A DNA stretch of 63,984 nt, counting the filler, from a bacterium (lineage in GTDB: Bacteria; UBA9089; CG2-30-40-21; SBAY01), in NCBI GenBank assembly GCA_040757115.1. It is 8 parts of 8 records of this genome, joined end to end, with 100 filler letters (N's around TTAATTAATTAA, not from the genome) between each part and the next. Parts side by side here need not be neighbours in the genome. Positions count along the whole stretch, not along the records: positions 59,152 to 63,984 come from JBFLYA010000276.1; 7 more parts are not named here. One strand, 5' to 3'. Every line of letters starts with the position of its first letter. Position 1 is the first letter of the stretch. The notes beneath the pieces are model-generated. The model was not told the origin of the DNA. It saw nothing but the letters and a program-made list of their open reading frames with translations, and did no database searches. Below are positions 2,737-63,292 of this stretch, piece by piece. The position numbers and the translations under genes are program-made.

Positions 2737-4591
2737 ATGTTGCCAGCCCTTCGCTCACATAAAAAATATAAAAAATTTGTCAAAAAACATATAAAAAATC
2801 TCCAACTATCAGAAAAAGATAACGAAGTTTGCGAAAAACTAAAACTCCTTAATCTGGAGCCTCTCCGCCCAATAGTTGAACCTCTATACAGTCCTTCAAA
2901 AGGTTCTACGGCCAGAGCTCCTGAAGACATCCTCCGCTCTTTTGTAGGAATGTCCCTTTATGATTTCATTTCCATTGACCACTGGTATGATTTCCTCTCT
3001 GATAAGAAAAATATCGCCTCTGTCTATATTATAGGACAATCTCCTAATACCCTTATTAGCGTAGGAACACATTATCACTTTATTGATCGACTTTGGCAAA
3101 ATACCTCCAAAACAGAACAAATAGTCAATCTAAAGAACAAAAAGAAAAAATCCGTCAAATCACACAAAAATAAAGATGAAGAGGACATAGAAACGTTGAG
3201 AAAAAAACACCATCATATCTTGGCAAAAATCGAAGAAAGAATCAAAACCCGTTATCCTGACCCCTCTATCGTCCCAATGGACAAAAGACATGAAGCTGTC
3301 ATAGATGCTATATTCCACACAATTGCTGTCCAACCTTCCATTGAAAAAGGTCTGGTGGCTGACAATCAATTCAATGGTGATAGCACTAAAGTAGCAACTT
3401 TCGCTAACCCAAACGGACATAAAGTCTGTTTCGGCAAAGATAATTGCCACTGCCCATGTAAAAAATGCAAAGAAGGTAATTGTGACTGCTCTAAAGAAAA
3501 ATGCTCCTGCAACGGAACTTCCCCCAGAAAACAAACAAAAATTTCGAGCTAACCTATTGTTAATTAAGGAGATATGTTGAAAGTGATTTTGAGACTTTCG
3601 TAGCTACAATTGAACAGACAAGTTTATTTCTAATCCTTCATAAAAAATATTATCTCATAAATTGTAAGAATTGTCAAGTATTTTTTTTAAATATTAAAAA
3701 TATTCGTAGGCACACTTTTAAAATATATTTTGGTCGTATCCTCTTGATACTCATAAACTTAAATTTACTTTTTAGATGATTTTTAGGGGGAAGTTCCGCT
3801 GCAATTATAGAAAATTACACGATCCTGATGCCGCCTGGGGTTATGACTCTTACCATGACCGCTTTGTTTATGGTCACAGTATCCACCTACTCTCTGATAG
3901 TAAAAATGATTTACCTGTTCTAATTAAACTTACCCCCGCTAACCGCCATGATAGCGTCATTACTCCTCTTCTCCTCTTTAGCGCCAAAAACATCCATCAA
4001 TACTCATTTACAAATGCAGCTTTTGATACCGCAAGCGATAATTACCCTACTTACAGACTCGCAACTGACTACTGGAAAATTAACTTATTCATCCCTCTTA
4101 GAGAAACGACTAAGTCCTCGCAGATTAAATTACCTCGTTCTATAATCAAATTCACCGATAAAGGCACTCCTGTCTGCCTTAATAATATGGAGATGTATTG
4201 CTGGGGGTTCTGTAAGGACAGATCCAGAATTAAATGGCGTTGTCTCCTTGTAGCCTTGAAATCTACTCCCGATCTAAAATCCTGCCCTCATCATCTACAA
4301 TGTTCCACATCTGATTATGGGAGAGTAGTTTTTACTAAACCAGAATGGGATTATCGCCTCTTTACTCCTATCCCAAGAGAAACTCCTTTATGGGAAAAAT
4401 ATTATGATGAACGGTCAGGTTGTGAACGACTAAACAAACGACTGACTAAAGACTACAAATTGGATGAGATAAAAACTACTGGGACTAAACGATGGTTCTT
4501 CCGAGCAACAATAGCATCTATTTGTATCCACATAGATGCTTGGTGGACACAACTCAATAGGGAAAAATCTAACACACAACTAAAAGAGTGA
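2737..4591 (+). pseudogene. DDE transposase (IS1182/ISNCY-like) split by a MITE
   Basis: Motifs GDST, DPDAAWGYDS, ANRHDS, RSGCERLNKRL; ORFs 2737-3552 and 3776-4591 rejoin in frame when 3513-3804 is removed. Confidence 0.85.
3513..3798. mobile_element. 286-bp MITE with 6-bp target duplication
   Basis: IR CGGAACTTCCCCC / GGGGGAAGTTCCG; CTGCAA at 3507-3512 and 3799-3804. Confidence 0.9.
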
Positions 4592-5364: not shown

Positions 5365-5915
5365 TTTGTGAGTTGCAGACTCATGAGCGTTCTCCTGAAA
5401 ATGAATAGAATACGGATGACACGGATTAGACGGATGAGCACGGATTTTTTATTTTTTAGTAATCGGATTGAGCGGATTAATCGGACTTCTTTTCTGTTTT
5501 TTTATCTGCTCAATCCGCTAAATCCGCTTACTACTTATTTCCCTTATTGTAACCGTTCAGGTAATCCTTTACCGCAGAGACGCAGAGAAACAGAGAAGAA
5601 AATATCTTTTTTTCGTGTTTTTCGGTATTTAAAAAGGCTTAAAAACAGTTAGTCGAAAGTAAGTATTAAAAGATTATAAACAACGAAAGCCCCGAAATGC
5701 ACAAAAAAAGGGAATTTCTGTTTCTGGTGAATAGATTTTAATTTTTTCTCTGCGTCTCTGTGTCTCTGCGGTGAACGGTTACCCCTTATTTCCCTTTGCG
5801 TTCTTTGCGTGCTTGGCGTGAAACTTCCTTTCCCCTGAAAATCGGGGTTCGGGGATTCTTTTATTCCCGAGCCCCGAGTCCCGAGCCCCGAGCCCCGAGT
5901 CCCTTTATTTTCATT
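5365..5915 (-). repeat. Array of AGGAG/hairpin cassettes with nested MITE
   Basis: TTCTCCTGAAAAT at about 5390 and TTCCCCTGAAAAT at about 5830; hairpin ATG-AGT-ctgca-ACT-CAC; (CCGAGCC)n cargo. Confidence 0.7.
5549..5782. mobile_element. GTAAC...GTTAC MITE with 8-bp TSD
   Basis: CCCTTATT on both sides; arms CCGCAGAGACGCAGAG / CTCTGCGTCTCTGTGTCTCTGCGG. Confidence 0.85.
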
Positions 5916-6720: not shown

Positions 6721-6975
6721 GTAACTATTCACTACGAAGAGCACGAAGGACACGAAATGGAATTTAATGTCTTGTAATTTTCGGTAGTGTCTGACAATAA
6801 CTACAATTCTTTTAACCACAAAGCTCACAAAGAGTTTCACAAAAGAGTCAAAGATTTTTGAGAGAATAAATTTTTCCCTTTATTTCTTTGTGTATTGTTT
6901 GTGTAATTTGTGGTTAATTTCAGAGACCATCTAATTTTCTTCGTGTCCTTCGTGTTCTTCGTGGTGAATAGTTAC
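6721..6975. mobile_element. GTAAC hairpin element with nested GGT(A/G)GTGTCTGA MITE (6783-6931)
   Basis: Outer IR GTAACTATTCAC / GTGAATAGTTAC; inner element flanked by TAATTTTC direct repeats. Confidence 0.8.
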
Positions 6976-10299: not shown

Positions 10300-10491
10300 C
10301 AATTAGATTATATCATACCTAATCCATTATGTCAAAAGGATTTTGTGTCAATATTCAGAATCCCGTGTTTCAAAATTCTATNNNNNNNNNNNNNNNNNNN
10401 NNNNNNNNNNNNNNNNNNNNNNNNNTTAATTAATTAANNNNNNNNNNNNNNNNNNNNNNNNNNNNNNNNNNNNNNNNNNNNTAAAATTTTT

Positions 10492-10853
10492 CGACCTGTG
10501 AAATAGGAATATTTTGATCGTAGTTAGTATAAGAAGGGGGATAAGGGGATAAAGGGGATATGGAGATATCAGAGAAGAATATCAAGAAAATCTACTTACT
10601 GAGATAATAATTCAATGTATTATCAAGGTACACCAGACACTGGGGCCAGGTTTTCTGGAGAGTATTTACCGCTTTAAAAGCTGCAGGTGTAAAGGTGGCT
10701 ATTCTTGTAAACTTTGCTAAAGAAAAGGCAGATTTTAGAAGAGTGGAATTAGAATAATATCCCCTTATCTCCTTAATCTCCCTATCTCCTTTTCTTACAC
10801 CAAGCAGTGGAGTATAATTTTGTTTTTCCCTCGTTGACCTATTTCACAGGTCG
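10492..10853. mobile_element. MITE with CGACCTGTGAAATAGG ends and 8-bp TSD, carrying GxxExxY remnant
   Basis: 16-bp perfect IR; AAATTTTT on both flanks. Confidence 0.88.
10565..10757 (+). pseudogene. Internally deleted GxxExxY (PD-(D/E)XK) protein
   Basis: LTEIIIQCIIKVHQTLGPGFLESIYR joined out of frame to LKAAGVKVAILVNFAKEKADFRRVELE*. Confidence 0.85.
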
Positions 10854-11305
10854 AAATTTTTTGGTGTCTTAATCTAGCATAACAGGTTGAAATAGTGTAA
10901 GAAAAGGAGATATGGGGATTATGGAGATAAGGAGATAAATTCATTCTAAAATTTTGCAAATTACAATGAATAATCTCCATCTCTCCCTTTATCTCCTTAT
11001 CTCCTTTTGGACACCAAATCTGCATAGATTTCATTATTAGCGTTATTTTCAGACACCACCAAATTTTCGACCTGTACGGTTAGATTTAGGCTACGAATTT
11101 GATATCTCTATGCACCAAAGGTGCAAAGGAATTTATTAGCCCGTAGGTTTCAATCTACGGAATGGATTATTCCATAAAATCAAGCCCCGACGGGGCACAG
11201 GAAGATTACCATCTATTCAAACCAGACAGATTTGCAAGAATATTTACCAATAATCTGAATTTTTGCAAACTTGTTGTGGATGAGTATATATAGTTCATTG
11301 AATAG

Positions 11306-17428: not shown

Positions 17429-17526
17429 AAAGCGGTTATCGTCTATCGTTGATGGTTTATAGTTTATAGTGTATAGTTGATGGTTGATAGTCTATAAACT
17501 ATAAACGATAAACTATAAACGATGTT

Positions 17527-18516: not shown

Positions 18517-19694
18517 TCAAGACCTGCCAATCACAAGTTGTGAATAGCGCCTAATCCATTCCAAAATCATTCCAAAACCACAGGCAATGGCTAAGTTATT
18601 GGTAAAGACAGCAATTATTCCAATTAGACAGGCTAATAGAAATCCCTTTTCTCCGATTAAGTCGCTAATCAAGAGACAATGTTTTAAACCTACATACATT
18701 ACCATTATACCAAGAATAGCTGGAGAAATCAACTTAAATATTTCACCCATTCCTTTGCCGAAGAAGAAAGCCAATCCTATATAAATGCTACCGATGATGA
18801 TGCAGGCTATCCCTGTGCGTGCTCCGAAGCTATAATGGGCAGTTAAACCACCTGAACCATGACAAATAGGCATTCCCCCAGACAACCTATGACCATATTA
18901 GCGGTGCCTAATCCAAGACACAAAGAGGTTTCAGTAACTCGCCTGGCTTGCTGACCAAAGTATTTTCTAGCTACATCTGTTGTAGAAATAATTGAATTGC
19001 CTAATGTTAAAGGTAATTGTGGAATGACTAAAAGAAAAAAGGCGTTAATAAAATCGTCAATCTTAGGAATAGATAGACTGAATTCTGGCATATTAAACAT
19101 TTGGATGGCAGAATGCTCCATTCCTCTGGTTAACAAATTTAGCCCTATTCCCCAGATTAATATGGCAATTGTAGCAGGAAACCCTTTATTCCAGAGAAAA
19201 ATAGATATAATCACTAATCCCCCAAAAATCATCAGCAGTTGGAAAGGTATTCCTCCTGATAAACCACAACTACCCTCGGAGATGATTGATTTAGTAATCA
19301 TCTTCCAACTTGTATTTACTAACATCAACCCTATTCCTAACTGTATTCCTTTTATTATTGGCGGGCTAAACAGACAAGTCAAAAGTCTGGTTAATCCAGT
19401 TATTGCCAGTAACAATAAGATTATCCCCATTAATATCCCTGCGGCATAAATTAATGAAGGGCTGAGACTATTAGCAATAGCAATAGCCGCTAAGGCTTTT
19501 AAGGGTTGAACAGGCATCGGTAGTTTATAATAAAAACCAGCAATTATATATACCAATCCAACCATCAATAAACTCACTGTGGCATTCAATCCATTTATAG
19601 CGATAAGAGATACATAGATTGGGAGGAGTGTGGGAATATCTCCTAAGGCACCAGATAATTCAGTTAAGAATGTTTTTTTATTATTTTCTTTCAT
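18517..19694 (-). pseudogene. MOT1-type molybdate/sulfate transporter with one frameshift
   Basis: ELSGALGD, PMPVQPLKA, PQLPLTLGNS; conserved GGMPICHGSGG split at a G5 run near 18875. Confidence 0.8.
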
Positions 19695-19748
19695 TATATC
19701 TCCTGAAAATGGGCTGTCTGACCTGTCGGACAATCCCCTATGTTTTCC

Positions 19749-32043: not shown

Positions 32044-32070
32044 TCTTCTCCTTTCGGCTAATCAAAAAGT

Positions 32071-32929
32071 GTAACCGTTCAGGTAATCCTTTACCGCAGA
32101 GACGCAGAGAAACAGAGAAGACATAGAAATAAAGTAACTATTCAGCCACTGATTAACACGGATTAGCACGGATAAAAAAATAAAATCAGTGTTTCATCTG
32201 TGTCCATCTGTGGCTGAATAGTTATCAATAAATTTTAATTTTTTCTCTGCGTCTCTGTGTCTCTGCGGTGAACGGTTACGAGGAAAATATCTTTTTTTCG
32301 TGTTTTTCGCGTTTTTCGGTGTTTATAGCAGTTATTATTCAAAACTTTACTTAGAATTAAATACTCGTAACTACTCGTAGTGAATTAACAAGTTATGCGT
32401 GAACCATTACTACACTATGTCAAATTAGTGCTATAACTCTCTATATTTTTAGACAATTATGTCCATTTGGCTTGCCTTCCCCTATTTCTTATGATAAAAT
32501 GGGAAAAAACAGAATGTGAAAATTCTACCTCATCCTTCATTTAATGTCCCATAGGGACAATATATCGGTAGAAATAAATATCATACAAATAATGTCCCAT
32601 AGGGACAATATATCGGTAAATGGTTTTCCATAAATTTTCTACCAATATATCGTTCCTACGGAACTGATTGATTTATCTATCTATTCCTACCGATATTATG
32701 ATCCTAACGGAACGATTATTCTCATGCCTTATTTATGGGTATTATCTTATGTAAACTTCCAGTTAATAACCGCTATAAAAAGGCTTAAAAACAGTTAGTC
32801 GAAAGTAAGTATTAAAAGATTAATAAACAACGAAAGACCCGAAATGCACAAAAAAAGGAAATTTCTGTCTCTGGTGAATAGATTTTAATTTTTTCTCTGC
32901 GTCTCTGTGTCTCTGCGGTGAACAGTTAC
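32071..32929. mobile_element. GTAAC MITE with 8-bp TSD containing nested elements
   Basis: CAAAAAGT at 32063-70 and 32930-37; internal GTAAC hairpin at 32134-32225; TA-flanked 450-bp insert at 32326-32775. Confidence 0.88.
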
Positions 32930-33370
32930 CAAAAAGTCCAATAATTGAACAAAAATTTATCAGTAGTTTAAAATTTAATCATAGTTGTTTAAAAGTTAGA
33001 AAAAAGGTTTGAAGTGAGTTTTTAATTTACCGAAAGAGCATCTTTCTATAACTTTAGTTGTATCAATATGTTAGATATGAAGTAGTGGTCAGGGGCTTTA
33101 GTTAGCATAAGATTTGCTCCTCTATATTATTGTAAAATCCCTTTCAATCGTCAACCCTATCGTAAAAGGGAAATGGGGCAAAATAAAGATGTTAAATACC
33201 CTAAATAAGGTGGTCAAATAGAAAAATTGACACAGATTTTTGCCCCAGGACTAATTAAAATTGGTAACTGGTTAAATGGTAAGTAATTACCATTCACCAG
33301 TTATCATTACCAAATTAAAGGAGGTGAAAAAGGAGGTCCTTCTTAAAAAAATTAAAGGAGGAAAGAAAAA

Positions 33371-37598: not shown

Positions 37599-37852
37599 GG
37601 GTTCTGCAAAATAGGATTTGGGGGAGACAATAAATAAATATTAAATATTAAATATCAAAATGCAAAATTACAAATCAAATTTCAAGTTGATAGTTGATAG
37701 TTTATAGTTGATAAGTTGAAGGACTATAGACTATAAACTATAAACCATAAACTATAAACGAGTTTTGCATTTTGCTCTTTGGAGGAAATTGATAAAAATA
37801 GAGGTTTTAAATACCCGCTTAAAAACTACAGTTTCTTAGTTTTGCAGGACTC
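37599..37852. mobile_element. TA-flanked MITE with heptamer arms
   Basis: GGGTTCTGCAAAA / TTTTGCAGGACTC ends; (GATAGTT)n and (CTATAAA)n inside. Confidence 0.65.
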
Positions 37853-42709: not shown

Positions 42710-42872
42710 TGATAGTAGATAGTTTATAGTAGATAGTAGATAGTTGATAGTTGATAGTTGAAGGACTATAGACTATAGACTATAGACTATAAACCATAAA
42801 CCATAAACCATAAACTATAAACCATAAACTATAAACCATAAACTATAAACTATAAACCATAAACTATAAACG
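42710..42872. repeat. Heptamer tandem-repeat palindrome between pheS and pheT
   Basis: (GATAGT[A/T])n facing (C[C/T]ATA[A/G]A)n; smaller copies at about 17440-17523 and 37686-37760. Confidence 0.85.
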
Positions 42873-45771: not shown

Positions 45772-46376
45772 TATAGCGGTTATTAACTGGAAGTTTACAT
45801 AGGATAATACCCCATAAATAAGGCATGAGAATAATCGTTCCGTTAGGAACATAATATCGGTAGGAATAGATAGACAAATCAATCAGTTCCGTAGGAACGA
45901 TATATTGGTAGAAAATTTATGGAAAGCCATTTACCGATATATTGTCCCTATGGGACATTATTTGTATGATATTTATTTCTACCGATATATTGTCCCTATG
46001 GGACATTAAATGAAGCAAAACTCAAAACTACAACTAAAAACTTCTCCATCAGTCGCAATAAATCTCAATGAATCTATTAGTTTTAAGGTTTTGAGATGAG
46101 GTTTTGAGTTTTGACATTTGAGTTTTGAGTTGATATTGTCCCATCTGATGGACACGGCTGAACGCTTACGAGATAATTTTACATTTTGATATGTAATTTT
46201 TATATTTGCTTTTTGCATTTTGCTCTTTGGAGGAAATCCCTTTTGGACACCAAATCTGCATAGATTTCATTATTTAGAGTTATTTTCAGACACCACCGAT
46301 TTTCCGTGTTTTATCCGTGTCCATCTGTGGCTGAATAGTTACTATTTTTCTTTGTGACTCTGTGGTGAACGATTAC
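45772..46376. repeat. Cluster of MITE/REP fragments
   Basis: Reverse copy of 32540-32775 (GTCCCTATGGGAC, TTCCGTAGGAA), GTTTTGA heptamer hairpin, TCAGACACCACC end, GTTAC ends. Confidence 0.75.
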
Positions 46377-58299: not shown

Positions 58300-58557
58300 A
58301 TGAAAAAAATATATCTTATTGGAATTGGCCCTGGCGGTCCTGATTATCTTACTATTCAGGCAATAAATATAATGAAAAAGATAGATGTATTCTTCATCCT
58401 TGAGAAGGAAGGAAATATTGAGTTTCCCAAGATGAGGCTGGAGATACTAAAAAGGTATCTGGATAAAGACACATATCGAGTCGTGACGGCAAAAGTCCCA
58501 AAGCGTCCAAAGAGTAGTCCGTATAAAGAAGGGGTTGAACCCTTACGTCCACTTTAA
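58300..58557 (+). pseudogene. cobF: Precorrin-6A synthase/tetrapyrrole methylase N-terminus, truncated
   Basis: IYLIGIGPGGPDYLTIQAI...DVFFILEK; ends at a GTAAC-element remnant. Confidence 0.7.
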
Positions 58558-58654
58558 ATGCTACTTTGATAATCTCTTCTCTAATTTTCTCATATTTTAA
58601 ACCCCTTCTATTTTATCCGTGTCAATCTGTGTTAATCCGTGGCTGAACAGTTAC
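58549..58654 (-). mobile_element. Left arm of GTAAC element with GxxExxY N-terminal remnant
   Basis: GTAACTGTTCAGCCACGGATTAACAC then LKYEKIREEIIKVAFKV. Confidence 0.65.
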
Positions 58655-58872: not shown

Positions 58873-59351
58873 CTACCCTCCTTAAAAGATTATAGTGATT
58901 TTTTTATTATGTCAAGAAATTTTAGTAAGCGTTCAGGTAGTGTAACAAAAGGAGATGTGGAGATTAAGGAGATAGGGAGATATTATTAAAAAAATTGAAA
59001 TTAATAGAAACTAATAGAAATTTATGGAAATTTGTTGTTTTCCACAATCAANNNNNNNNNNNNNNNNNNNNNNNNNNNNNNNNNNNNNNNNNNNNTTAAT
59101 TAATTAANNNNNNNNNNNNNNNNNNNNNNNNNNNNNNNNNNNNNNNNNNNNGAAATTTATAGAAATAGGTAGAAATTGATTGTGGAAAACAACAAATTTC
59201 CATAAATTTCTATTAGTTTCTATTAATTTCAATTTTTTTAATAATATCTCCCTATCTCCTTAATCTCCATATCTCCTTTTGTTACACCACCTGAACGCTT
59301 ACAAGTTTCTGAATTGACTTTGGCGAAAAAAAGAATATGAGGTAAATATCT

Positions 59352-61347: not shown

Positions 61348-62121
61348 TTACCTGCTTTCTACCTCTTTCTTAATTATTTCTCGAGCTAAATTTATATACG
61401 CCTCGGCACCTGTAGAATTAATCTCATAAAGAATAATTGGCTTACCAAAACTCGGTGATTCTGAAAGTCTAACATTGCACGGGATAACCGTTTGATATAC
61501 CTTACTCGTAAAACACTTTCTAATTTCAGCGGTAATTTGTTGTGAAAGATTAGTCCGGGCATCAAACATAGTCAAAAGTATTCCTTCAATAGCGAGTTTA
61601 GAATTAAGTCTATTTTGAACCAGGGTAATTGTCCCTAAAAGTTGTCCTAATCCTTCTAAGGCGTAATATTCACATTGAATAGGAATTAGAACCGTATCCG
61701 CCGAAACAAGGGAATTTAATGTCAGTAATCCTAATGAAGGTGGCGTATCAATAAAAAGATATTGATAATTATCCTTGATTTCTGCAATCGCCTCTTTTAA
61801 TTTTAATTCACGGCCTTCGATATTGACTAATTCAATTTCAGCGCCAGTTAAAGTTACATTCGCCGGAACTAAATCCAAATGTTCTAATTCTGTCTTACAG
61901 ATAGCCTTCGTAATTGGCTCTTTTCCAATTAACACCTCATAAACATTTGGGTTACACTTATGTTTATCAAATCCTAATCCACTTGTGGTATTCGCCTGAG
62001 GATCCATGTCAATAAGGAGGCAATGTTGACCTAACATTGCAAGGCAGGCGGCGAGATTTATCGCGGTTGTTGTTTTTCCTACCCCTCCTTTCTGATTGGC
62101 AATAGTAATTATTCTACCCAT
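61348..62121 (-). CDS. parA: ParA/Soj chromosome partitioning ATPase
   Basis: NQKGGVGKTTT, DPQAN, QCEYYALEG, NVRLSESPSFG. Confidence 0.96.
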   Translation of the reverse strand: MGRIITIANQKGGVGKTTTAINLAACLAMLGQHCLLIDMDPQANTTSGLGFDKHKCNPNVYEVLIGKEPITKAICKTELEHLDLVPANVTLTGAEIELVNIEGRELKLKEAIAEIKDNYQYLFIDTPPSLGLLTLNSLVSADTVLIPIQCEYYALEGLGQLLGTITLVQNRLNSKLAIEGILLTMFDARTNLSQQITAEIRKCFTSKVYQTVIPCNVRLSESPSFGKPIILYEINSTGAEAYINLAREIIKKEVESR

Positions 62122-62171
62122 AACATTATCCTCCTGATTATTGGTAATTGGTTACCCATTTTTAATTTCGT

Positions 62172-62463
62172 GTAACTATTCACCGCAGAGACGCAGAGGA
62201 ACAGAGAAAAAAGGATTTAAATTAGATTGTGGATACCGGATAGATCTTTTAGTTGAAGAAAAAGTTATCGTAGAATTAAAAGCAGTCGAGCAACTACTTC
62301 CGATTCACGAAGCTCAACTTTTAACCTATCTAAAAATGATGAATAAAAGGATAAGTTTATTGATCAATTTTAATGTTTCTGTTCTAAGAGATGGAATTAA
62401 GCGTATAGCCAATAGATTTTAATTTTTTCTCTGTGTCTCCGCGTCTCTGCGGTGAATAGTTAC
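62172..62463 (+). mobile_element. GTAAC MITE with 8-bp TSD carrying GxxExxY C-terminal half
   Basis: AATTTCGT on both flanks; IR GTAACTATTCACCGCAGAGACGC; cargo GYRIDLLVEEKVIVELKAV...HEAQLLTYLK...LLINFN. Confidence 0.92.
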
Positions 62464-62487
62464 AATTTCGTGAAGTCCTATTCAAAA

Positions 62488-63207
62488 TTAAGTTATTGGT
62501 TTTCTCTCTGGCACACCTACTCTTCGGGGATACTCTACAGGTGTTGGTTTTATCTTTTCTATAATGACTAAATTCCTCTCTTGATGAACAATGGGCAAGG
62601 TTATCCGTTTTTGTTCTTTAATCCTTCCCCCTAAAATATCTATCGCCTTTTGTGCATAGATTAATTCATCTTGTAGAAAACTTCCTTTCTGGGAGATGAA
62701 TAGCCCTCCTATTTTTAAAAAAGGCAATGTATATTCCACTAATGTATTTAATTTAGCAACTGCTCTTGATACTACTAAATCATATCTTTGGCGATATTCT
62801 TCTTTATTCCCAAATTCTTCGGCTCTACCCTGTAAAATCTCGAATTTTATCCCCAGGTGATTTTTAAGTTGATAAAGGAATTCGACATATTTTCCCTTTG
62901 AATCTAATAAAATCAAATTGACTTGCGGGTAACAAATCTTTAAAGGTATCCCTGGAAATCCTGCTCCAGTTCCTACATCGATTATCTTCATCTCATTAAT
63001 CGGACAAAATCCCAGGGCGCAAGTTAATGAATCAAGAAAATGATTCACAATAATACCATCAGAAGTCTTAATTCCTGTAATATTAACCTTCTGATTATAG
63101 TCTTTAATTATCTTTAAATAAATAGAGAACAATTTTAGTTGAGCATCATTTAAAGCAATTCCTAACTCCTTTGTTCCCTGTTTGAATAACTCTTCTAACT
63201 GATACAT
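62488..63207 (-). CDS. rsmG: 16S rRNA m7G527 methyltransferase
   Basis: HFLDSL, DVGTGAGFPGIPL, SRAVA, YPRRVGVP. Confidence 0.96.
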   Translation of the reverse strand: MYQLEELFKQGTKELGIALNDAQLKLFSIYLKIIKDYNQKVNITGIKTSDGIIVNHFLDSLTCALGFCPINEMKIIDVGTGAGFPGIPLKICYPQVNLILLDSKGKYVEFLYQLKNHLGIKFEILQGRAEEFGNKEEYRQRYDLVVSRAVAKLNTLVEYTLPFLKIGGLFISQKGSFLQDELIYAQKAIDILGGRIKEQKRITLPIVHQERNLVIIEKIKPTPVEYPRRVGVPERKPIT

Positions 63208-63292
63208 TAATGCTTCTATTATTCTACTATATTTCAGTTTAGATGTCAAGGATAAATCAAAAGTAGGAGTAATGGGTCAGTGAAATGGGGGA

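Follow-up and report, generated by a model that had tools for sequence, protein, structure and literature searches.

A 292-bp element lodged between the parA and rsmG genes of a bacterial genome is a mobile unit—the nearest genome has an exact empty site at the same position, and 10 distinct elements with ends of this type are bounded by perfect 8-bp duplications. We consider it probable that the unit is a chimeric MITE/mobile insertion cassette moved in trans by an IS66-type transposase. The element occupies positions 62172-62463 of the window (by which we mean the whole 63,984-nt stretch of DNA that was analysed), within the spacer separating a parA-type ATPase gene (61348-62121, minus strand) from an rsmG/GidB gene (62488-63249, minus strand). 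Its inverted arms, at 62171-62212 and 62423-62464, are 42 nt (41-42 nt) long and 93% complementary, and the direct repeat AATTTCGT(G) flanks the element at 62164 and 62464, the two copies of the target-site duplication AATTTCGT spanning 62164-62171 and 62464-62471. The left inverted repeat (62172-62212, plus strand) opens with the IS66-type terminus GTAACTATTCACC and continues with the octamer units CGCAGAGA, CGCAGAGG and AACAGAGA; the right inverted repeat (62423-62463, minus strand) terminates in ...GGTGAATAGTTAC. Enclosed between the two arms are 69 codons plus TAA from the C-terminal part of a GxxExxY gene (62213-62422, plus strand), which has kept the D..E.K core and is devoid of both a start codon and the N-terminal GxxExxY helix. 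In HMM searches, this fragment matched positions 51-117 of the 117 in PF13366 (E 3.3e-22; 79.5 bits against a cut-off of 22) and positions 54-115 of the 116 in TIGR04256 (80 bits against a cut-off of 35). The incomplete domain is the sole coding remnant of the element, which has no transposase gene; a mobile insertion cassette is defined by an intact passenger gene, and the gene of the window copy is truncated. These results confirm the first-pass annotation, which had described a 292-bp element with long inverted repeats and an 8-bp duplication, carrying the C-terminal half of a GxxExxY gene between rsmG and parA. No Rfam family was found on the element; the single match, a sub-threshold one to the hsp17 RNA thermometer, lies just outside it at 62119-62159 (minus strand; 29.1 bits against a gathering score of 45), directly upstream of the parA start codon.

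Genome-wide work was carried out in the nearest genome, G001, which has 38% of sampled 31-mers in common with the window and is 99% identical to it in the parA/rsmG flanks. On contig C269 of G001, the orthologous parA-rsmG spacer reads ...TTTTAATTTCGTGAAGTCC... unbroken, with a single AATTTCGT—the exact empty site. A different GTAAC-ended element of 280 bp, with the duplication CAAAATTA, was found 11 bp further on in G001, at a point where the window is empty. Since the 292-bp element is present only in the window and the 280-bp element only in G001, the two alleles record two reciprocal insertions. An integron attC-type cassette was also considered and ruled out, as an exact 8-bp duplication distinguishes the filled site from the empty one. 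The long TGGTAAC/TGGTAAT heptamer array, followed by its inverse, that lies upstream of parA in G001 (locus L032, C269, 115-240) is represented by one or two units in the window, at 62140-62160.

The duplication test covered the window together with G001 loci L001-L051 (200,660 b), in which 44 candidate end pairs were compared with a control consisting of the next 8 nt outward. Duplications identical at 8 of 8 positions were present at 13 of the 44 pairs—10 distinct elements after two duplicated loci had been dropped—and none of the 44 control pairs agreed with one mismatch or fewer. The 292-bp element itself is represented in G001 by 11 full-length copies, 94-99% identical, and by partial ones at contig ends; among eight distinct copies examined, five had a perfect duplication and three (L022, L024 and L028) did not. 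First-type ends number 116 in G001, against 0 for the reversed pattern, and GTAAC-plus-octamer ends were detected in six of 30 relatives, with 116 in G001, six in G003, four in G006 and one each in G004, G011 and G024 (controls, 0). The copy on contig C30 of G001 occupies a paralogous target, offset by two bases and with the duplication TTTCGTGA; this copy and that of the window each lie 8-10 nt from another GTTAC end, and their placement hints at a preferred target. Altogether, three independent GTAAC-ended insertions lie no more than about 30 bp from the same target or from a paralogous one (window 62150-62500; L032; L033, 1470-1850), two of them (AATTTCGT and TTTCGTGA) only 2 bp apart, which marks an insertion hot spot.

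Further copies and remnants were identified elsewhere in the window, where GTAACNNTTCA occurs 19 times against 0.54 expected (100 shuffles, maximum 3) and the 23-nt end has five matches against 0 expected. A gene-less relative of 234 bp with the same arm type (5549-5782, plus strand) is bounded by the duplication CCCTTATT at 5541-5548 and 5783-5790; its left flank is repetitive in G001, and the region itself has 42 matches there at E<=1e-30, about 20 of which cover most of the element at 86-100% identity. The second, a composite element at 32071-32929 (plus strand) with the duplication CAAAAAGT (32063-32070 and 32930-32937), shows three further features: an additional right arm, internal and ending at 32279; a mini element of the second type, nested at 32134-32225; and a repeat insertion of about 450 bp. 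The composite is found at the orthologous place in G001 and is not polymorphic. That each of these two copies has an 8-bp duplication of its own, as had been proposed, is thus borne out. The companion claim, that both keep the last codons of the gene beside the right arm, stands in part: AATAGATTTTAATTTTTT adjoins the right arm as in the 292-bp element, but the identity runs over 12-18 nt and is suggestive only, the 5549 element and the 292-bp element having nothing in common beyond their arms and the 18 nt that immediately precede the right one. Plausible, too, is the proposal that 58549-58654 (minus strand) keeps only the N-terminus, for it comprises a solo second-type arm (GTAACTGTTCAGCCACGGAT...), an ATG and about 14 codons resembling the start of a GxxExxY protein, although this stub, too short to register, gave no HMM match at E<=10.

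A second GxxExxY remnant (10537-10795, plus strand), placed between GGGGATAA and TATCTCCT repeat arms, matches profile positions 2-27 and 88-115 in two frames, and is thus internally deleted; it has no GTAACYRTTCA ends and no IS66-type tips. An arm-only version lies downstream of it, at about 10886-11010. We also found a 255-bp element with GTAACTATTCA ends and CACGAAG-type arms (6721-6975, plus strand), which has no target duplication (5 of 8 positions differ), and a 378-bp element with GTAAGCGTTCAGG ends and AAGGAGAT-type arms (58925-59302, plus strand), whose flanks match at 5 of 8 positions. Short repeats are common throughout the window: Tandem Repeats Finder returned 141 rows, mostly with 7-9-nt units, and many of the arrays are intergenic and inverted back to back (TGATAGT x7.4 beside ACTATAA x15.3, for instance), as at 42710-42871, 37685-37759, 17436-17523 and 46016-46131. 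Two runs of N at 10382-10481 fall in a 1-kb repeat-rich spacer between FtsX-type permease and secretin genes. Separately, the MFS_MOT1 molybdate-transporter domain is split across two overlapping ORFs of 122 and 296 aa (18517-19733, minus strand), which may reflect a frameshift or a sequencing error.

Elements that have these termini and do encode a transposase were found, namely IS66-family ISs of G001 and its relatives. G001 encodes an IS66-family transposase (PF03050, E 6e-24, plus zf-IS66), and the right end of the corresponding element, ...GAGCAGTTAC, abuts three different flanks on three contigs, with an unbroken allele of one of these sites on C154. The contig bearing the N-terminal part of the transposase begins with GTAATTGTTTACC, presumably the left end of the element; the search for its left junction matched only this contig, which starts at the presumed end. 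A complete transposase gene was not seen in G001, the N-terminal part stopping at a contig end and the C-terminal part opening another contig. Across loci L047 (C113), L048 (C129), L049 (C624) and L050 (C154), the element occupies at least three insertion sites, and the unbroken allele of one, on another contig, suggests a polymorphic population within this metagenome-assembled genome. In G007, a member of the same order, we identified a 1505-bp IS in which both ends read GTAACCGTTCAC and a single 468-aa ORF matches PF03050 (E 4.5e-39), and other IS66-family ends in the phylum are GTAACTATTCAGCA (G018), GTAACTACTCAGG (G008), GTAACCGTTCACAGGGG (G002) and GTAACTATTTAC (G024). Over the terminal 11 nt, 9-11 of 11 positions match in the IS66-family elements of G001, G002, G007, G008, G018 and G024. 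The likeness between ISs and MITEs is confined to the terminal 11-13 nt (GTAACYRTTCA), and the subterminal parts are unrelated.

One report describes IS66 inverted repeats as beginning GTAAGCG, with 8-bp direct repeats (PMC11946415), and another gives the end of ISDge4, a member of the single-ORF ISBst12 group of the IS66 family, as GTAACTGCTCAGCA with an 8-bp repeat (PMC12898284). Taken with the IS66-family ends in G001 and its relatives, these published features identify the tips and the 8-bp duplication of the MITEs as those of the IS66 family. Since IS66-family ISs share the ends, these are best regarded as borrowed IS66-type termini, and the transposase, rather than the GxxExxY protein, as the likely motor. 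PF03050 was detected in 16 of the 30 relatives searched, all within the phylum. Several observations qualify the role of this transposase. The 8-bp duplication was absent at all four complete IS66-family elements inspected in relatives (L040/L139, L042/L138, L044 and L140). G003 carries six GTAAC-plus-octamer ends, yet no PF03050 match was obtained in this genome at 94% completeness. The IS66-family transposase is put forward as the presumed motor of the 292-bp unit. That some other transposase family with 8-bp duplications moves 292-bp-type elements is highly improbable, for although only the first 11-13 nt match IS66-family ends and the window contains the transposase-like ORFs DDE_3 (1101-2012) and DDE_Tnp_1 (3776-4591), no GTAACNNTTCA stands beside either ORF—its first occurrence is at 5549—and 9-11 of 11 end positions agree with several IS66-family elements. 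A further transposase-like ORF of 271 aa, unassigned to a family, lies at 2737-3552; the ORF at 3776-4591, whose DDE_Tnp_1 match is weak, is of the same length, and both of these, as well as the DDE_3 ORF, are unrelated to the 292-bp element.

To what extent the 292-bp element descends from a gene-bearing unit can be judged from the GxxExxY genes of G001. PF13366 has 71 matches in this genome, of which 17 are full length without stops and the remainder are fragments falling into recurring classes, such as profile positions 50-53 to 117, 2 to about 40, and 83-89 to 117. The 292-bp element aligns with the intact 464-bp unit L001 save for a 12-nt gap in the left arm and an internal gap of 167 nt, which takes out the start codon and about 55 codons. 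Another unit, L008 (563 bp), has an intact TIGR04256 gene, GTAAC ends and a perfect 8-bp duplication, and accordingly qualifies as a mobile insertion cassette. GTAAC-type tips, exact or near and on at least one side, accompany five of the 17 intact genes (L001, L002, L008, L016 and L017), with a perfect duplication only in L008. Inverted arrays of short tandem repeats stand on either side of all 17, with a unit that varies by GxxExxY subfamily (CGCAGAG, CACGAAG, CACAAAG, CACAGAT, CACGGAT, GACAGGAT and others). GTAAC-type ends occur on at least four types of arm, and the GxxExxY subfamilies to which these belong share only 38-62% identity, so capture was not a single event.

The first-pass annotation had read these elements as a deletion series of a nuclease-carrying mobile unit. 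The mobility, the existence of a series derived from gene-bearing units and the intact gene in L008 all agree with that reading, but the general form of the claim does not hold, because 12 of the 17 intact genes in G001 have no GTAAC-type ends and none of 80 relatives from other phyla has them on both sides. The direction of the series, from longer to shorter units, is the one we infer. The annotation had also envisaged an ordinary IS with these ends in which a GxxExxY gene was captured only once; the ISs do exist, in the form of the IS66-family elements, and the single capture is contradicted by the variety of arms.

MITEs and mobile insertion cassettes are portrayed in PMC3129680 as IS derivatives moved in trans by a cognate transposase. 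Judged by its features, the 292-bp unit is a non-autonomous MITE, which would derive from a small mobile insertion cassette and have a long inverted repeat of chimeric origin. In this scheme, its outermost 11-13 nt (GTAACYRTTCAcc) would copy the termini of the IS66-family ISs of the lineage, and the next ~28 nt would represent the octamer-repeat arms between which a GxxExxY gene is normally found. Both ends would be bound by a DDE transposase of the IS66 family, encoded elsewhere in the genome, which would insert the unit by means of an 8-bp staggered cut. The internal 167-nt deletion would have removed the start and the first ~55 codons, with the crippled unit then multiplying, and the GxxExxY sequence would be a passenger relic that is not needed in cis. 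Supply of the GxxExxY protein in trans is conceivable because 17 intact genes are present in G001.

We also examined the GxxExxY cassette outside the window's lineage, in 80 loci from public genomes with 58-74% protein identity; these represent only the subfamily nearest the gene in the window, a 4-sequence alignment having served as the query. The loci come from Acidobacteriota, Planctomycetota, several proteobacterial classes, Bacteroidota, Chloroflexota, Verrucomicrobiota, Omnitrophota, Methanothrix and a Methanophagaceae record. Of the 77 loci with sufficient flanking sequence, 59 have the gene between the arms of a significant inverted repeat (0 of 40 shuffles reaching the score, z>=3), and nearly all of the arm repeats, across phyla, are built from units of the form (T)TCACC-R-C-R-GAG-R-C-R-C-R-GAG. 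The two-unit motif (ACC-R-C-R-GAG...) was found facing inward within 200 nt at 47 of 74 loci upstream and at 47 of 74 downstream, and on both sides in 38 loci. The control, 143 far-flank segments that were each scanned in the two orientations, gave 10 hits. The arms stand directly before the start codon and after the stop codon, and in 52 of 59 loci they keep a fixed orientation with respect to the gene. GTAACYRTTCA was present on both sides in none of the 80 relatives, with a near match on one side in two (control, 0). Duplications were not evident in the 21 relatives' loci inspected, save for a 7/8 match in one Syntrophobacteraceae record. In that record (L057), GTAAGATT and GTACCCAT precede the arms and the outside 8-mers match at 7 of 8 positions; these may be independent IS66-like tips outside the lineage of the window.

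Several cassettes occupy orthologous sites with common flanks in different genomes (L072, L074, L094 and L119 in Terriglobia; L053, L086 and L096 in Burkholderiales; L064 and L069), and in those lineages they look stably inherited. The gene plus its arms is thus a conserved unit, and the IS66-type tips are an addition found in the lineage of the window. TTCACC, the sequence with which natural arms begin, is similar to positions 8-13 of the IS66-type end, and grafting of about 7 bases may have sufficed to create such tips. The GxxExxY/PF13366 family, widespread and present in many copies per genome, gains a concrete genomic identity from these comparisons—that of a gene inherited with conserved octamer-repeat inverted arms across phyla, archaeal records included.

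A similar arrangement surrounds an unrelated gene family, PF05635, the four-helix-bundle family of 23S rRNA intervening sequences. PF05635 has 39 matches in G001, with the same mix of intact and fragmentary genes as GxxExxY, and 15 of the 16 full-length genes (loci L147-L168) lie between inverted arrays of 7-9-nt tandem repeats whose units are unlike those of GxxExxY. A GTAAC-type end was found at one of the 16, on one side only, and none of the 16 is located in rRNA. Literature searches of the main articles returned no description of repeat arms around GxxExxY or PF05635 genes and nothing linking intervening-sequence proteins to repeat arms. A broader proposal, which we regard as possible but speculative, is that GxxExxY and, in parallel, PF05635 form the cores of pan-prokaryotic small selfish cassettes, in which the inverted 7-9-nt arrays would be cis sites for the enclosed protein, and that repeated grafting of IS66 tips in this lineage would have hijacked a DDE transposase, leading to a burst to more than 100 ends per genome.

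The arms might alternatively act at the RNA level, with a 5'/3' stem that insulates, processes or silences the enclosed gene in the manner of rRNA intervening-sequence stems, their presence in a MITE being a by-product. This explanation, which is compatible with IS66-driven movement, appears unlikely to us. It is consistent with the folding of the 292-nt element into a 41-bp terminal stem (-100.6 kcal/mol, z -9.8), with the placement of the arms immediately outside the start and stop codons, and with the same layout around genes of PF05635, a family named in Pfam for 23S rRNA intervening sequences. However, G-U-compatible transitions between the arms are not in excess (58 against 49 incompatible ones), the arm sequence itself is conserved across phyla beyond what pairing requires, and no Rfam family was matched. 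That conservation of arm sequence would fit recognition by the co-inherited GxxExxY protein.

The properties of this protein bear on a further alternative. A table in PMC3424549 lists GxxExxY/PF13366 as being of unknown function and as having undergone multiple transfers; mobility is not dealt with in the GxxExxY literature examined. In an alignment of 16 sequences that includes the window fragment, D64, E74 and K76 of the PD-(D/E)XK core are invariant. Structure prediction for an intact relative (pLDDT 94.9) gave a minimal PD-(D/E)XK domain, whose nearest folds are Cas4 (the nearest), RecB-type nucleases, lambda exonuclease and Hjc, all at TM <=0.54. Sequence similarity to Cas4 is weak (PADLOC, best E 7.7e-5), a sequence search retrieved no solved structure for GxxExxY, and PHROGs gave no match.

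With such a fold, intact GxxExxY paralogues could themselves recognise the octamer-repeat arms and mobilise any cassette, intact or truncated, that lies between such arms; the IS66-like tips would then be incidental. RAYTs, which are HUH/Y1 (IS200-like) transposases, act in this way on REPINs. The inverted arrays around all 17 intact genes of G001 and in 59 of 77 relatives, the excess of inward-facing motifs over controls, the fixed arm orientation, the correspondence between arm type and gene subfamily, the loss of similarity at arm ends between paralogous copies and the confidently predicted nuclease fold would all be expected from such a role. We nonetheless judge it improbable. The 8-bp duplication is the signature of a DDE-type staggered cut and not of a 120-aa nuclease, the tips are common to real IS66-family elements, and the cassettes that lack tips have no duplication, recur at the same site in several related genomes and look stable; moreover, the sharing of the architecture by 15 of 16 unrelated PF05635 genes means that the arms are not special to the nuclease. 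It is on account of the DDE-like tips and duplication, the spread of a truncated copy and the PF05635 parallel that we do not regard GxxExxY as the motor here. The first-pass annotation had left GxxExxY proteins as either passive cargo or part of the mobility machinery; the spread of the truncated copy and the IS66-type ends favour a passenger relic, and the second role is argued against.

Under the preferred reading, that of a chimeric unit mobilised by an IS66-type transposase, the reciprocal filled and empty sites would document a selfish cassette parasitising the transposase of another element via about a dozen terminal bases. Such elements would also account for the heavy fragmentation of the G001 assembly (770 contigs).

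Among known systems, the genes of the four-helix-bundle family associated with 23S rRNA intervening sequences (PF05635) resemble GxxExxY cassettes in being small ORFs between inverted repeats, and differ from them in their unrelated fold and their other repeat units. The REPIN-RAYT system, the subject of PMC3116915, likewise combines a small nucleic-acid enzyme gene between inverted short repeats with gene-less repeat doublets scattered around the genome. Here, however, the central gene is PF13366, with a PD-(D/E)XK fold rather than an HUH/Y1 one, and the copies that spread have IS66-type tips and 8-bp duplications. The ISBst12 group of the IS66 family, with ISDge4 as an example (PMC12898284), is matched in the GTAAC..TCA ends and the 8-bp duplication, and single-ORF relatives with the same ends are found in the same order and phylum; unlike these ISs, the window element encodes no transposase, and would be moved by that enzyme. 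With MITEs and mobile insertion cassettes, the 292-bp element shares its small size, inverted ends, target duplication, lack of a transposase, multiple copies and IS-shared ends, L008 of G001 providing the intact passenger. From textbook MITEs, which are simple internal deletions of an IS, it departs in that IS-like sequence is confined to the outer 11-13 nt and the remainder of each arm comes from a separate, widespread gene cassette.
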